From a virus (lineage: Duplodnaviria; Heunggongvirae; Uroviricota; Caudoviricetes), in the IMG/VR virus record IMGVR_UViG_2698536647_000010: 12,502 nt of DNA; one strand, given 5' to 3'. Shown here piece by piece: positions 1 to 12,502 of the stretch (its first letter is position 1; each line of letters begins with the position of its first letter). Made by a program: the position numbers and the translations under genes. Under the pieces are notes generated by a model. It did no database searches. It saw only the letters and a list, made by a program, of their open reading frames with translations, and was not told the DNA's origin.

Positions 1-270
1 TTACTCCCTGACAGGATTTGCAGGCCACTCAATATCAGGTACAGTTGATGTATCAACACGATTCAACAATACCCGATATTTATTCCATGCCTCCAGCAAC
101 GATCTTTCTTCCTCCGTTGCGATTTCCAGATCTACAGCATCCTGCAGTGGCGCAATATACTCACTGAATTCCTGGATGTAGAACTGTGTGGTGACGGTCT
201 TCCAGCCATTCGGCTCTTGCTGTATCGAAGCATACCAGGCTATTTCAATATCGCTATGCTGCGGCAGCAT
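1..270 (-). CDS. Short Tfa-like ORF (89 aa); C-terminal ~55 aa resemble the conserved C-terminus of lambda-type tail fibre assembly protein, N-terminal ~35 aa do not (truncated or chimeric tfa copy)
   Basis: Complete minus-strand ORF from ATG at 268-270 to TAA at 1-3. C-terminal segment [19 protein letters not shown]...[11 protein letters not shown]...DIEWP is shared with the tfa copy at 1049-1483. No convincing Shine-Dalgarno, so expression is uncertain. Confidence 0.45.
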
Positions 271-297
271 TTAACCCCTTGTAATTCATCGCCATAA

Positions 298-326
298 TTG
301 ATTTAATTCACAAATAAAACTATAAC
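298..326 (+). promoter_or_regulatory. Candidate sigma70 promoter (TTGATT - 17 nt - TATAAC) upstream of the methyltransferase cassette
   Basis: -35-like hexamer at 298-303 and -10-like hexamer at 321-326 with a 17-nt spacer, in an AT-rich intergenic region; followed by GGTGA (329-333) and ATG at 339. Sequence pattern only. Confidence 0.3.
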
Positions 327-409
327 ATGGTGAAATCAATGAAAAAAACACAGATGATGGGGCTAAAATTTACACACCACTTACCCTAAAGCTTTATGAC
401 TGGTGGGTT

Positions 410-994
410 TTGGGAGTATCAAATCGGCTTGCATGGGGATGTCCTACAAAGGAACACCTTCTTCCACACTTTCTGGAACATGTAGGTAACAACCATCTGG
501 ATATTGGTGTTGGAACTGGGTTTTACCTTACTCACGTACCTGAGAGTAGTCTGATATCTTTAATGGATTTGAACGAAGCTAGCCTGAACGCGGCATCTAC
601 AAGGGCTGGGGAATCAAAAATTAAACATAAAATTAGCCATGATGTTTTTGAACCTTATCCCGCGGCGTTACATGGTCAATTTGATTCCATTTCCATGTTT
701 TACCTTCTTCACTGCCTGCCTGGAAATATATCTACAAAAAGCTGTGTAATACGCAATGCGGCGCAGGCCTTAACTGACGATGGAACTCTATACGGAGCCA
801 CAATTCTTGGCGATGGAGTTGTGCACAATAGCTTCGGTCAAAAACTGATGCGCATTTACAATCAGAAAGGCATCTTTTCAAACACAAAAGATTCCGAAGA
901 AGGCTTAACACATATACTCTCAGAGCATTTCGAGAATGTTAAAACCAAGGTTCAAGGTACTGTAGTAATGTTTTCCGCTTCAGGGAAAAAATAG
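410..994 (+). CDS. Class I SAM-dependent methyltransferase (Rossmann fold), body of the ORF; true start probably upstream at ATG 339 in another frame (see findings)
   Basis: Translation contains the motif I glycine-rich loop LDIGVGTGFY followed by an acidic residue about 20 aa later (LMDLNEA), typical of SAM-binding methyltransferases. No DPPY/NPPY-type motif was seen, so a DNA amino-methyltransferase is not indicated. The ORF is open from 326 but has no in-frame ATG/GTG before the TTG at 410. Confidence 0.6.
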   Translation: MGVSNRLAWGCPTKEHLLPHFLEHVGNNHLDIGVGTGFYLTHVPESSLISLMDLNEASLNAASTRAGESKIKHKISHDVFEPYPAALHGQFDSISMFYLLHCLPGNISTKSCVIRNAAQALTDDGTLYGATILGDGVVHNSFGQKLMRIYNQKGIFSNTKDSEEGLTHILSEHFENVKTKVQGTVVMFSASGKK

Positions 995-1001
995 CATCCA
1001 A

Positions 1002-1034
1002 CCGCAGCACGTTCTTGCTTAAGACGTGCTGCGG
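1002..1034. terminator. GC-rich hairpin between convergent genes (possible bidirectional terminator)
   Basis: Perfect 11-bp inverted repeat CCGCAGCACGT (1002-1012) and ACGTGCTGCGG (1024-1034) with an 11-nt loop, lying between the methyltransferase stop (994) and the tfa stop (1049). Flanking A/T runs are weak. Confidence 0.35.
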
Positions 1035-1048
1035 CATAATCCCAATGA

Positions 1049-1547
1049 TTACTCCCTGACAGGGTTCGTAGGCCACTCAATATCAGGTGCAGTTGATGTA
1101 TCAACACGGTTCAGCAACACCCGATATTTTTTCCAGGCTTCCAGCAATGAGGTTTCTTCCTCCGTTGCGATCTCCAGATCTACAGCATCCTGAAGTGGCG
1201 CTATATGCTCACTGGCTACCTGCATCAGGCTGTTTTTTGTTTCTTCCGCCTCCCGGATCCGGAACAGTTTTTCTGCTTCCGTATCCTTCACCCAGGCTGT
1301 GCCGTTCCACTTCTGATATTCCCCTTCCGGCGATAACCAGGTGACATTTTCCGGTAACGAGCCAAGTTCAGAAATAAATAACGCGTCGCCGGAAGCCACG
1401 TTCTGGCGGTGCAATATCGGTACTGTTTGCTGGCAGACCTGTATGAGGCGGAATATATGCGTCACCTTCACCAATAAATTCATTAGTTCCGGCCAGCAGA
1501 TTATAAATTTTTATGGTCCGTGGTTGTTCACTCATTCTGAATGCCAT
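1049..1547 (-). pseudogene. tfa: Tail fibre assembly protein (lambda Tfa family), disrupted by an internal deletion/frameshift
   Basis: ATG at 1545-1547 overlaps the stop of the upstream fibre gene (TAATG arrangement). From it, [48 protein letters not shown] matches the recalled lambda/Rac Tfa N-terminus, then the frame stops after 59 codons (TGA 1368-1370). The conserved Tfa C-terminus ([13 protein letters not shown]...APDIEWP) continues in a different frame as the 1049-1483 ORF. About 29 aa of Tfa appear to be missing at the junction. Confidence 0.65.
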
Positions 1548-8609: not shown

Positions 8610-11081
8610 ATGAGTAAAGTCTTTATTTGCGCCGCCATTCCTGACGAACTGGCAACAAGGGAAGAAGGCGCTGTGGCTGTAGCCACAGCCATTGAAGCTG
8701 GCGACGAACGCCGTGCTCGAGCAAAATTTCACTGGCAATTCCTGGAACATTATCCGGCTGCTCAGGACTGCGCTTATAAATTTATTGTCTGCGAGGATAA
8801 ACCAGGCATACCCCGCCCTGCCCTCGATTCATGGGATGCTGAATATATGCAGGAAAACCGCTGGGATGAGGAGTCTGCTTCTTTTGTCCCGGTTGAGACT
8901 GAATCCGATCCGATGAACGTCACTTTTGACAAGCTGGCCCCTGAAGTACAGAACGCTGTCATGGTTAAGTTCGACACATGTGAAAACATCACCGTTGATA
9001 TGGTTATTAGCGCACAGGAATTGTTGCAGGAAGACATGGCAACATTCGACGGACATATCGTTGAAGCGTTGATGAAAATGCCAGAAGTTAACGCCATGTA
9101 TCCGGAGCTTAAGTTGCACGCCATTGGGTGGGTTAAGCATAAATGTATTCCTGGTGCTAAATGGCCCGAAATTCAGGCAGAGATGCGCATCTGGAAAAAA
9201 CGTCGCGAAGGTGAACGCAAGGAAACCGGAAAATACACGTCTGTTGTTGATCTCGCCCGCGCCAGAGCCAATCAACAGTACACTGAAAATTCAACAGGAA
9301 AAATCAGCCCGGTCATTGCTGCCATTCATCGCGAATACAAGCAGACATGGAAAACACTGGATGACGAACTGGCCTACGCTCTCTGGCCTGGTGATGTGGA
9401 TGCCGGAAACATTGACGGCAGCATCCATCGCTGGGCAAAAAATGAAGTTATCGACAACGACCGCGAAGACTGGAAGCGTATCTCGGCATCAATGCGCAAA
9501 CAGCCTGATGCCCTTCGCTACGACCGCCAGACTATTTTTGGCCTTGTCCGTGAACGTCCGATCGACATTCACAAAGACCCTGTGGCACTGAACAAATACA
9601 TTACTGAATACCTGACTACAAAGGGCGTGTTTGAAGATGAAGGAAGAAATCAGAGCGCAACTGATACTCTCTCGTCGCCAGTACCAGAAACTGATGCAGT
9701 GGAAACGGCAATTCCGGGCAACGAAAAAACCGAATGCGAAGTGGAAGACGAACCATCTGTAGAGCGTGAGGGACCGTTCTACTTCCTTTTCACCGATAAG
9801 GACGGCGAAAAATACGGTCGCGCAAACAAACTTTCTGGTCTGGAAAAAGCACTGGCCCTGGGAGCTACGGAAATCACAAAAGAGGAATACTTCGCACGTA
9901 AAAACGGCACGTACTCAGGTTCACAACAAAATACTGGTGCATCTGACACGATCGCACAACCAGAGCCGGTAAAAGTTACCGCTGACGAAGTAAACAAAAT
10001 TATGCAGGCAGCCAATATCAGCCAGCCTGACGCCAATAAGTTGCTTGCTGTATCACGTGGTGAATTTGTTGCAGGGATTAGCGACCCGAATGATCCGAAA
10101 TGGGTGAAGGGGATTGAAACCCGCGATTCAGTGAATCAGAACCAGCAAGAAACGGAACAGAACGGCCAGAAAGCGGAACAAAACAGCCCAAATGCGTTAC
10201 AAAACGAGCCAGAAACGAAACAGCCTGAACCAGTGGCGCAACAGGAAGTGGAAAAAGTCTGCACCGCCTGCGGTCAAAGCGGTGGCGGCAACTGCCCTGA
10301 TTGTGGCGCGGTGATGGGTGACGCAACATACCAGGAAACATTCGATGAAGAGAATCAGGTTGAAGTTCAGGAAAATGATCCGAAGGAAATGGAAGGCGCT
10401 GAACATCCACACAAGGAGAATGCTGGTAGCGCTCAGGATCACGCCAGCGATAGTGAAACTGGCGAGACGGCAGATCCCTTAATTGCGATGAACGGTCATC
10501 ACGTTATCACATCCACCAGCAGAATGTGGCACCACATGATGATCGACCTTGAAACCATGGGAAAAAATCCCGATGCCCCGCTTATCTCAATAGGTGCAAT
10601 ATTTTTCGATCCGCAAACCGGAGATATGGGGCCGGAATTTAGTAAGACCATCGATATGGATACTGCTGGCGGAGTCATTGATCGTGGCACCATTAAATGG
10701 TGGCTTAAGCAATCACGGGAGGCGCAATCTGCCATTCTGACCGATGAAATCCCGTTAGATGATGCACTGCTGCAATTGCGGGAATTTATCGACGAAAACT
10801 CCGGCGAATTTTTTGTTCAGGTCTGGGGAAATGGAGCCAACTTCGACAACACGATTTTGCGCCGTTCATACGAACGGCAGGGGATCCCCTGCCCATGGCG
10901 TTACTACAACGATCGCGATGTACGCACAATCGTTGAGCTGGGGAAAGCCATAGACTTCGATGCCAGAACGGCTATTCCATTCGAAGGTGAGCGCCATAAT
11001 GCACTTGATGACGCCCGTTACCAGGCAAAATACGTTTCAGTTATCTGGCAAAAACTGATCCCGAATCAGGCTGATTTTTAA
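8610..11081 (+). CDS. Large (823 aa) prophage exonuclease-like protein: YdfE-like N-terminal region, central acidic/Gln-rich linker with a CxxC...CxxC zinc ribbon, C-terminal DEDDh (DnaQ-like) 3'-5' exonuclease domain
   Basis: GAGG about 10 nt before the ATG. C-terminal motifs MMIDLETMG (Exo I, D-x-E), GNGANFDNTIL (Exo II) and HNALDDARYQA (Exo III, H-x4-D). Zinc ribbon CTACGQSGGGNCPDCG. The N-terminus MSKVFICAAIPDELATREEG... resembles what I recall of K-12 YdfE, which is a fragment there. Sits in the recombination-gene position between the kil-like genes and xis. Confidence 0.75.
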   Translation: MSKVFICAAIPDELATREEGAVAVATAIEAGDERRARAKFHWQFLEHYPAAQDCAYKFIVCEDKPGIPRPALDSWDAEYMQENRWDEESASFVPVETESDPMNVTFDKLAPEVQNAVMVKFDTCENITVDMVISAQELLQEDMATFDGHIVEALMKMPEVNAMYPELKLHAIGWVKHKCIPGAKWPEIQAEMRIWKKRREGERKETGKYTSVVDLARARANQQYTENSTGKISPVIAAIHREYKQTWKTLDDELAYALWPGDVDAGNIDGSIHRWAKNEVIDNDREDWKRISASMRKQPDALRYDRQTIFGLVRERPIDIHKDPVALNKYITEYLTTKGVFEDEGRNQSATDTLSSPVPETDAVETAIPGNEKTECEVEDEPSVEREGPFYFLFTDKDGEKYGRANKLSGLEKALALGATEITKEEYFARKNGTYSGSQQNTGASDTIAQPEPVKVTADEVNKIMQAANISQPDANKLLAVSRGEFVAGISDPNDPKWVKGIETRDSVNQNQQETEQNGQKAEQNSPNALQNEPETKQPEPVAQQEVEKVCTACGQSGGGNCPDCGAVMGDATYQETFDEENQVEVQENDPKEMEGAEHPHKENAGSAQDHASDSETGETADPLIAMNGHHVITSTSRMWHHMMIDLETMGKNPDAPLISIGAIFFDPQTGDMGPEFSKTIDMDTAGGVIDRGTIKWWLKQSREAQSAILTDEIPLDDALLQLREFIDENSGEFFVQVWGNGANFDNTILRRSYERQGIPCPWRYYNDRDVRTIVELGKAIDFDARTAIPFEGERHNALDDARYQAKYVSVIWQKLIPNQADF

Positions 11082-11145
11082 TGTTCAACCCCGGTCGTTG
11101 CCCACCAGCTATAGTGGCGGCGACCATGATTAGCGAACGACGCTC

Positions 11146-11394
11146 ATGGCAAGACTTATTCTGCTCACTGAGTGGGCAAAAGAGGAATTCAGTGAACCGG
11201 TCCCTACTCCGAGTACGTTAAGTAAATACGCTAAAGCCGGAATGATATTTCCTCTCCCCAAAAAAGTTGGGAGACGCTGGCGAGTGGATCCGCAAGCTCG
11301 CTTTGTCGGAATGGTAAACAAGCCGGAGGTGATCGCCACAGATCACCCTGCTTTGAAGAGGATACTGGAAGATGGCGCGCCCGCGAAAATATAA
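11146..11394 (+). CDS. xis: Excisionase-like protein (82 aa)
   Basis: Small basic ORF immediately upstream of the integrase and overlapping its start by 23 nt (lambda-like xis-int arrangement); RWRVD-type segment. No clear SD. Confidence 0.6.
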   Translation: MARLILLTEWAKEEFSEPVPTPSTLSKYAKAGMIFPLPKKVGRRWRVDPQARFVGMVNKPEVIATDHPALKRILEDGAPAKI

Positions 11395-12502
11395 AACCGA
11401 TGTTCCGGGATTATCTCCGTATTTTGACAAAAGAAATAACAAAGTTTACTGGCGTTACAGGCATCCCATAACAGGCAAAAATCACGGTCTCGGCAGTATT
11501 GACCAGAAACTGGCAGAAACTATTGCAGCAGAAGCGAACAGCCGTCTTGCCCGGCAGCAAATGGAACAAATGCTCAGTCTGCAGGAGAAAATTATTAGTG
11601 ATACCGGCGGTTCATCAACCGTTACCATTTTTCTGAATAATTACAGAAAAATTCAACAGGAAAGATATGAAAACGGCGAGATCAAACTCAACACGCTGAA
11701 ACAGAAAGCGGCCCCTCTCAGGGTATTTGATGAACGTTTTGGCACCAGACCGTTAGATGCCATAACCGTAAAAGATGTGGTATCAGTACTGGAAGAGTAC
11801 AAGGCCAGAGGACATAACAGAATGGGACAAATTTTCAGGAAGGTACTGATCGATGTTTTCCGGGAAGCTCAGCAAACGGGCGATGTCCCGCCAGGCTTTA
11901 ACCCTGCAGAATCGGCAAAAAAACCGCAGGTGCGGATATCAAGACAGCGACTGACTTTTGATGAGTGGATGATGATTTATAACGCAGCGGAAAAGGATGG
12001 TTACTTTTTACAGCGCGGTATGCTGCTGGCACTGATGACAGGCCAGCGCCTTTCAGATATTTGCAAAATGCAATTTTCGGATATCCGGGATGGTTATCTT
12101 CATGTCGAACAGCAAAAAACAGGAACCCGGATTGCCATCCCTCTGGCTCTGCGTTGCGATAAATTAAATCTCACCCTAGATGATGTGGTGTCATCCTGCC
12201 GCGATTGCGTTCTTAGTCCGTGGCTATTGCACCACCATCACGCGAAAGGGACAGCTAAGCGCGGCGGGATGGTTAAGCCAGCAACATTAACCGTTGCATT
12301 TAAAAAAGCCCGGGATTCTGTGGATTACAACTGGCGTGCTAATGGCACCCCACCCTCTTTCCATGAGCAGAGATCTTTATCAGAGCGATTGTTCAGAGAG
12401 CAGGGGGTTGATACCAAAATTTTGCTGGGCCATTCGAATCAAAAAATGACCGATATTTACAACGACGCACGCGGTAAGGAATGGAAAAAACTGGTCATTT
12501 GA
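11372..12502 (+). CDS. int: Tyrosine recombinase / lambda-family phage integrase (376 aa), apparently intact
   Basis: Catalytic signature present: TGQRLSDICKMQFSDI (Arg I), HEQRSL (His-x-x-Arg), LLGHSNQKMTDIY (His and nucleophile Tyr), aligning with lambda Int VVTGQR / HELRSL / LLGH...Y. Ends with a stop at 12500-12502; the att site would lie beyond the window. Confidence 0.9.
   Translation: MARPRKYKTDVPGLSPYFDKRNNKVYWRYRHPITGKNHGLGSIDQKLAETIAAEANSRLARQQMEQMLSLQEKIISDTGGSSTVTIFLNNYRKIQQERYENGEIKLNTLKQKAAPLRVFDERFGTRPLDAITVKDVVSVLEEYKARGHNRMGQIFRKVLIDVFREAQQTGDVPPGFNPAESAKKPQVRISRQRLTFDEWMMIYNAAEKDGYFLQRGMLLALMTGQRLSDICKMQFSDIRDGYLHVEQQKTGTRIAIPLALRCDKLNLTLDDVVSSCRDCVLSPWLLHHHHAKGTAKRGGMVKPATLTVAFKKARDSVDYNWRANGTPPSFHEQRSLSERLFREQGVDTKILLGHSNQKMTDIYNDARGKEWKKLVI

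Follow-up and report, generated by a model that had tools for sequence, protein, structure and literature searches.

We suggest that the window, that is, the whole 12,502-nt stretch of DNA from the Caudoviricetes record IMGVR_UViG_2698536647_000010, probably carries a rare, recent and recurrent -1 frameshift allele (A8 to A7) of a moron of the ybcY family, and that this allele reflects loss at a mutational hot spot rather than a selected switch. Slipped-strand loss of one A right after the start codon would have set the start codon, the ribosome-binding site and the promoter out of frame with the body of the gene. Ribosomes initiating at the ATG at position 339 would then terminate after 16 codons at 387-389, and the A7 allele would be null or, at best, a severe hypomorph. 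We infer from the sequence both that A7 entails a loss of function and that the missing A is real in the genome of the window rather than a base-calling error.

Based on sequence comparisons, the gene is assigned to the moron of E. coli lambdoid prophages that is named ybcY in K-12 and that is predicted to encode a class I SAM-dependent methyltransferase. The 801-base cassette was found at 97-100% DNA identity in 3840 of 5426 complete E. coli genomes (~70%), in which it is nearly always annotated as 'class I SAM-dependent methyltransferase' between tfa genes, and it is also present in 14 sequenced temperate phages. The window copy is nearly identical to the annotated copies, and tfa genes flank it as they flank all inspected loci. 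On one side, the C-terminal fragment of a tail-fibre-assembly gene occupies positions 1-270 of the minus strand, divergent from the methyltransferase (Pfam Caudo_TAP, E = 1.7e-24; the homologous loci likewise have a partial tfa). On the other side of the cassette, a tail-fibre-assembly gene lies on the minus strand at 1049-1483 (Caudo_TAP, E = 3.2e-43). BLAST cross-matches indicated that the 3' ends of these two genes (1-166 and 1049-1214) form direct repeats of ~90% identity located ~1 kb apart. Through homologous recombination, such repeats would allow prophages to acquire, lose or exchange the cassette, in keeping with its occurrence in identical form at several chromosomal locations.

None of the complete E. 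coli genomes matched the window over its entire length, and the best match had 97% coverage at 97.3% identity. Outside the cassette, the window corresponds to a Rac-like defective lambdoid prophage with DUF1627, a P-like replication protein, a DnaT-like protein, YdaT, a repressor, an exonuclease and an integrase. A 344-aa ORF on the minus strand (1547-2581) combines an N-terminal match to DUF977 (residues 6-46) with phage tail-collar and tail-fibre-repeat domains and directly adjoins the genes of the replication region (DUF1627, P-like and DnaT-like). This arrangement has the appearance of a deletion in which the early region was joined to the end of the tail-fibre gene and the genes for lysis and morphogenesis were lost; a prophage with such a deletion would be defective. 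Several other features of these loci were observed in passing. A 45-aa antisense ORF (939-1076, minus strand) overlaps the 3' end of the methyltransferase gene and is listed in RefSeq as a 'hypothetical protein' (WP_001309429.1) or a 'nucleocapsid protein' (WP_071592174.1); the calling of this ORF as a gene is probably spurious. The exact sequence of the E. coli methyltransferase cassette was also found on a 4.3-kb contig labelled 'MAG: Bacillus sp.' (L006, JBJEFM010000006.1), most likely through contamination or mis-binning. Finally, in one metagenome contig with the A7 allele (L020, CYGL01000217.1), the sequence of the integrase end of the window (10978-12502) is only ~1.6 kb from that of the left end of the window (1-1146), in the order opposite to that of the window, which suggests adjacent or rearranged prophage remnants.

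All the elements of the start region lie on the plus strand, and re-reading the window returned the same positions for them as a preliminary description of this locus. The methyltransferase frame is open from 326 to a stop codon at 992-994 and is closed upstream by a TAA at 323-325; ORF analysis and haplotype comparison indicate that its native codons run from the AAC at 347 to this stop. The ORF listing of the window gave no ATG or GTG in this frame before the TTG at 410-412, which is the first canonical start of the body frame and, in the alignment of homologues, the codon of the invariant Leu29. The ATG at 396 and the GTG at 403 were considered as starts for the body and rejected, as both belong to other frames. 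An ATG at 339-341 is preceded by a Shine-Dalgarno-like GGTGA (329-333) with a spacing of 5 nt, and a second ATG in the same frame is located at 327-329. Both ATG codons are one frame off the methyltransferase body, and the junction between the two frames is the run of seven A's at 342-348, immediately 3' of the ATG at 339. Translation from this ATG yields MKKTQMMGLKFTHHLP, an out-of-frame ORF of 16 codons (339-389) that ends at the TAA at 387-389.

A candidate sigma-70 promoter is located further upstream at 298-326, with TTGATT at 298-303, a spacer of 17 nt and TATAAC at 321-326. A promoter had been proposed at this position in the preliminary description, and the two hexamers are indeed present. 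The same hexamers, with the same 17-nt spacing, were given for the ybcY side of the ybcY/tfaX spacer of K-12 by Shimada et al. (2014; PMC3946193); RNA polymerase holoenzyme bound this spacer in genomic SELEX and the spacer was flagged as bound by H-NS. A consensus promoter scanner did not report 298-326 because its -10 element lacks the final T, and promoter-like sites were no more numerous than in shuffled sequences. In some haplotypes (L005, L007 and L008), the -10 element is TATAAT (C326T), a perfect consensus. Given a -10 element ending at 326, transcription is predicted to start near 332-335. This would leave a leader of 4-7 nt before the ATG at 339 and would exclude the ATG at 327 and most of GGTGA from the transcript, so that the predicted transcription start is not easily reconciled with GGTGA being conserved.

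Aligning the window with other copies indicated that the common allele has eight A's and reads MKKNTDDGAKIYTPLTLKLYDWWVL... The preliminary description had derived exactly this wild-type protein by adding one A to the run, and one added A in the window reproduces the protein of the great majority of homologous loci. For the A8 alleles, PGAP calls an intact CDS of 222 aa from the equivalent of the ATG at 327 (MVKSMKKNTDDGAKIYTPLTLKLYDWWVLGVSN...). Our database search yielded 2296 homologues, with 6589 member sequences in the E. coli cluster alone. Most homologues are 218 aa long, and they were found in Salmonella, Citrobacter, Enterobacter, Klebsiella, Yersinia, Erwinia, Pantoea, Aeromonas, Shewanella and Pasteurellaceae. 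Across 20 aligned homologues (mostly of 218 aa), the Met at the position of the ATG at 339 is invariant, and so are Y16, P18, L21, Y24, D25, W26, W27 and V28, all encoded upstream of the TTG at 410. The AlphaFold model (pLDDT 88) places the invariant residues from Y16 to V28 in a helix spanning residues 18-36. The upstream open frame is not a product of chance, since its 24 codons specify conserved or invariant residues of the family. The preliminary description would have been contradicted by homologues starting at the equivalent of the TTG at 410; instead, they start at the equivalent of the ATG at 339. From these alignments, we place the native start at the ATG at 339, with a predicted product of 218 aa.

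The region upstream of an Enterobacter chromosomal homologue has the TTGATTTAATTCAC and GGTGAAATTA-ATG blocks in common with the window, and the motif GGTGAAAT(T/C)A-ATG, with its Shine-Dalgarno-like element, is kept there. This homologue has no equivalent of the ATG at 327 and no A-run (ATG AAT AAA ATA...), which indicates that the tract is a feature of the Escherichia copy only. Indeed, the tract was absent from the homologues of other genera in the alignment of 20 sequences and at the Enterobacter locus.

We then determined the length of the tract across genome collections. In the complete E. coli set, 3808 records contained the locus, which occurs as two haplotypes with either C (as in the window) or T at position 337. 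The queries were 86-88 nt long with flanks of 37 and 42 nt, and exact matches were counted within the band of at least 99% identity; a 35-nt query spanning the tract was discarded because the low-complexity filter of BLAST would mask the A7/A8 seeds. For the window haplotype, complete E. coli genomes contained 1016 exact matches to A8, 4 to A7 and 0 to A9, and 11 exact matches to A7 were found for the haplotype with T at 337. At least 15 of the 3808 E. coli records, or at least 0.4%, thus had A7. When 60 evenly spaced records were inspected, 52 had a span of A8 length, 6 were K-12 laboratory derivatives with a span two bases below A8 (a -2 lesion), 1 was an exact A7 and 1 was a partial match.

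The other collections were scanned with a pattern permitting A6 to A10. The counts of A8 and A7 were, respectively, 5 and 0 for species-representative genomes, 116 and 2 for metagenome contigs, and 119 and 1 for IMG/VR viral contigs, for an overall count of 240 A8 and 3 A7; none of these three sets contained A6, A9 or A10. A7 therefore represents 3 of 238 metagenome or viral contigs (~1.3%). In each of the 14 phage records covering this region, the span was also of A8 length. For practical purposes, A8 is fixed (>98% of copies) and A7 is a rare variant. The preliminary description had called for this comparison of tract length in related genomes, and its outcome is that A8 is the norm.

The distribution of the A7 alleles points to repeated origins. 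The four A7 genomes with the window haplotype are from Japan, Mali, Switzerland and the USA; their cassettes are located beside potB or ompW/yciE, and their downstream tail-fibre regions differ. The A7 genomes with the other haplotype have the cassette beside ompT/appY, which is the DLP12 site. A7 thus spans two haplotypes and three or more chromosomal sites. Within 1-kb flanks, the nearest neighbours of every A7 allele are A8 alleles (0-5 differences), and some A7 alleles differ from one another at 6-11 positions. A7 on two haplotypes and at several sites, with A8 alleles as the nearest relatives, indicates that the deletion arose more than once. The 801-nt haplotype alone was uninformative regarding the number of origins, as A7 occurs on the commonest haplotype; this question was settled with the 1.1-kb flanks, together with the second haplotype and the chromosomal contexts.

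At the same tract, the ybcY gene of K-12 (b0562) has a lesion of its own, with a net change of -2. K-12 and the window have the same gene (~99% DNA identity); the K-12 copy is located in DLP12 between tfaD and tfaX with the same tfa flanks and promoter hexamers, and it is likewise disrupted at the A-tract just after the start codon. In K-12 derivatives, the cassette lies by appY and nohD and is annotated as 'frameshifted'. However, the lesion of K-12 destroyed the ATG (AATG-A8 to AAT-A7), whereas the window presents a clean change from A8 to A7 with the ATG intact, and the window copy resides in a different, Rac-like defective prophage. The closest intact counterparts of the window copy are the A8 alleles of lambdoid prophages and of phages such as 2G7b and ev243 (WP_000240999.1 and WP_000239881.1). 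Their body, promoter, ribosome-binding site and start codon are identical to those of the window, but, with one more A, they are read in one uninterrupted frame of 218 or 222 aa.

Among the ~217 full-length copies of the unselected scans, ~7 were disrupted, 3 of them at the tract and ~4 elsewhere in the remaining 650 bases, and ~96% were intact. The distinct codon variants comprised 29 synonymous and 29 non-synonymous changes, which suggests moderate purifying selection on the methyltransferase gene. The A8 run itself is a mutational hot spot that recurrently loses one base, as expected for an 8-nt homopolymer. When positions 250-1050 of the window were compared with the commonest A8 haplotype, we found zero differences except for the missing A and, hence, no secondary decay in the body of the gene. 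Given a gene body that still matches the commonest intact allele exactly, the deletion must be either very recent or a base-calling error.

The latter explanation, in which the genome is truly A8, one A was dropped in base-calling or polishing and the gene is intact, is unlikely in our judgement but carries real weight. This single base is all that separates the window from the commonest intact allele, and the rarity of A7, its scatter over unrelated strains and loci and the absence of an A9 match fit the deletion-biased homopolymer errors of long reads. Moreover, one A7 metagenome contig (L118, coverage 1.7) is of low quality and presents more indels nearby. On the other hand, A7 is also found in contigs whose names suggest short-read assembly and in an older isolate genome (L020 and L242). 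The window and the A7 contig L242 have one flanking SNP in common (1 difference from each other, versus 1-2 from the common A8 type), a weak indication that the allele was inherited. On the basis of E. coli mutation-accumulation studies, an 8-nt run is expected to undergo natural -1 slippage at close to the observed frequency. L020, L242 and the common SNP make a real A7 allele somewhat more likely. A real A7 allele might nevertheless be a leaky hypomorph, through a -1 slip of tRNA-Lys on G-AAA-AAA-A (with ACA as the next 0-frame codon) or through an extra A introduced by RNA polymerase, and we consider this improbable. A -1 slip after ATG AAA AAA would produce MKKN..., identical to the A8 product. 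At this site (G-AAA-AAA followed by A), an A-site or a single P-site tRNA-Lys could re-pair perfectly, but the P-site tRNA of a tandem slip would face GAA. In dnaX, an upstream Shine-Dalgarno at similar spacing stimulates -1 shifts, and GGTGA is located 8-11 nt upstream of the slip codons in the window. Like the C-AAA-AAA of pDEST17 attB1 and the A-AAA-AAG of dnaX, the window presents two zero-frame Lys AAA codons after a Shine-Dalgarno-like element, such that a -1 slip would restore the frame. In E. coli, one-base deletions were rescued at a level of 25-60% by the C-AAA-AAA of pDEST17 (PMC1851650). That result, however, was obtained with T7 RNA polymerase, and in a systematic reporter study, slippage on short A-runs came readily to T7 polymerase, whereas rescue by E. 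coli RNA polymerase was undetectable below eight A's (PMC6260861); the run here has seven. Transcriptional slippage of the type known from IS elements and mxiE likewise involves runs of ~9 or more A's or T's, and at least 8 A's in the reporter data. In contrast to pDEST17 attB1 and dnaX, the window has neither a conserved two-frame arrangement nor a downstream stimulator, and the host-polymerase data argue for low rescue of A7. All 20 aligned homologues and >98% of the E. coli copies are single-frame, we found no sign of selection for a two-frame arrangement, A8 being the norm, and the fold of 327-430 was no stabler than that of shuffled sequences (z = +0.76), i.e., no downstream stimulatory structure was found. 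We expect leakiness to be at the percent level at most. We give little credence to the stronger proposition that A7 is not null, with frequent -1 slips on AAA-AAA-A, helped by the Shine-Dalgarno 8-11 nt upstream and the rare ACA codon, yielding useful amounts of enzyme. If this were true, A7 and A8 would be low- and high-expression alleles, and the recurrent A7 would be tolerated or even favoured.

It is very improbable that the tract acts as a phase-variable contingency switch between A8 (ON) and A7 or A9 (OFF) at high frequency. Similar to simple-sequence contingency loci, ybcY has a homopolymer in its 5' coding region whose length sets the frame; this homopolymer sits right after the start codon, and K-12 and several prophages carry independent lesions at it. 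Contingency loci are nevertheless expected to show frequent ON and OFF lengths among related strains, and this is not what we observed: the OFF lengths are rare, since A7 accounts for at least 0.4% (complete genomes) and 1.3% (contigs) against >98% for A8, no exact A9 match was found for the window haplotype in complete E. coli genomes, and the pattern scans of the other collections contained no A6, A9 or A10. Typical A/T contingency tracts are also longer than eight A's, so that the tract of ybcY is short by comparison; it shows no population-wide length polymorphism and is not conserved in the homologues of other genera. Finally, the other half of the null alleles consists of ordinary lesions elsewhere in the gene. 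We find it barely credible that the gene is intact as it stands and translated from the TTG at 410 or from an ATC at 335-337, even though the ORF listing contains a 194-aa ORF from the former and RefSeq annotation by PGAP starts a 219-aa CDS (WP_029238848.1) from the latter in genomes with the A7 allele of the window. A start at the TTG at 410, which is unlikely, would drop eight invariant residues and half of the predicted helix 18-36, and no ribosome-binding site precedes it. ATC codons initiate translation very poorly, and the ATC at 335 is located 1 nt after GGTGA. None of the 20 aligned homologues starts at the equivalent of either codon, and PGAP marks the same lesion as 'frameshifted' on the other haplotype. 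The annotations of this one lesion are inconsistent: WP_029238848.1 is intact in NZ_AP022069, NZ_CP116925, NZ_CP124460 and NZ_CP123328, versus 'frameshifted' in NZ_CP020107 and NZ_CP076282. The ATC start is probably an annotation workaround, and WP_029238848.1 is most likely a rescued pseudogene call. The preliminary description had offered four explanations for this locus, among which a recently inactivated moron and an error in the homopolymer agree with our results. The phase-variable switch it proposed is at odds with the tract census, and a gene that depends on frameshifting is at odds with the single-frame homologues and the lack of a downstream RNA structure in the fold.

The enzyme disrupted by the A7 allele is only generically similar to characterized methyltransferases. 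Its 222-codon frame scored above the Pfam cut-offs for PF08242 (Methyltransf_12; 37.5 bits for a cut-off of 30), PF13489 (Methyltransf_23; 29.0 for 27) and PF13649 (Methyltransf_25; 27.7 for 27). Motif I (D/E-x-G-x-G-x-G) is present as DIGVGTG, with D59, G61, G63, T64 and G65 invariant in the 20 homologues, and the AlphaFold model (pLDDT 88, pTM 0.85) presents alternating strands and helices in a Rossmann-like seven-stranded fold. Over 1300 methyltransferases of the PDB were matched at E <= 1e-3. The best sequence and fold matches were a PmtA-type phosphatidylethanolamine N-methyltransferase (8ys9), the Plasmodium phosphoethanolamine methyltransferase, JHAMT, UbiG and NodS, at 14-21% identity and TM-scores of ~0.6 (PDB sequence search and Foldseek), and the NCBIfam scores were far below cut-offs. 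The window enzyme has the fold and the SAM-binding motif in common with 8ys9, the Plasmodium enzyme, JHAMT and UbiG, but at this level of identity the similarity is generic and falls short of establishing membership of any of these families. We detected no features of DNA methyltransferase families in the PDB, NCBIfam and Foldseek searches. Based on sequence and on the model, the 218-aa product is predicted to be a class I SAM-dependent methyltransferase of the small-molecule type. The homologues of Salmonella and Enterobacter are stand-alone chromosomal genes, around which we found no informative neighbours, and the Escherichia copy is a moron by tail-fibre genes.

The lesion described here is probably an ordinary homopolymer indel (or else a miscall), and the K-12 copy, with its own lesion in this tract, already has the status of a pseudogene in its annotation. 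The biological weight of the A7 lesion is limited, as it would represent another accessory prophage gene knocked out by a homopolymer indel. The result is of value for annotation: the true start of the family is the equivalent of the ATG at 339 (218 aa), and an A7 encountered here is a reason to examine the reads. The substrate of the enzyme and the benefit that it may bring to lysogens constitute a more interesting question than the A7 lesion itself.
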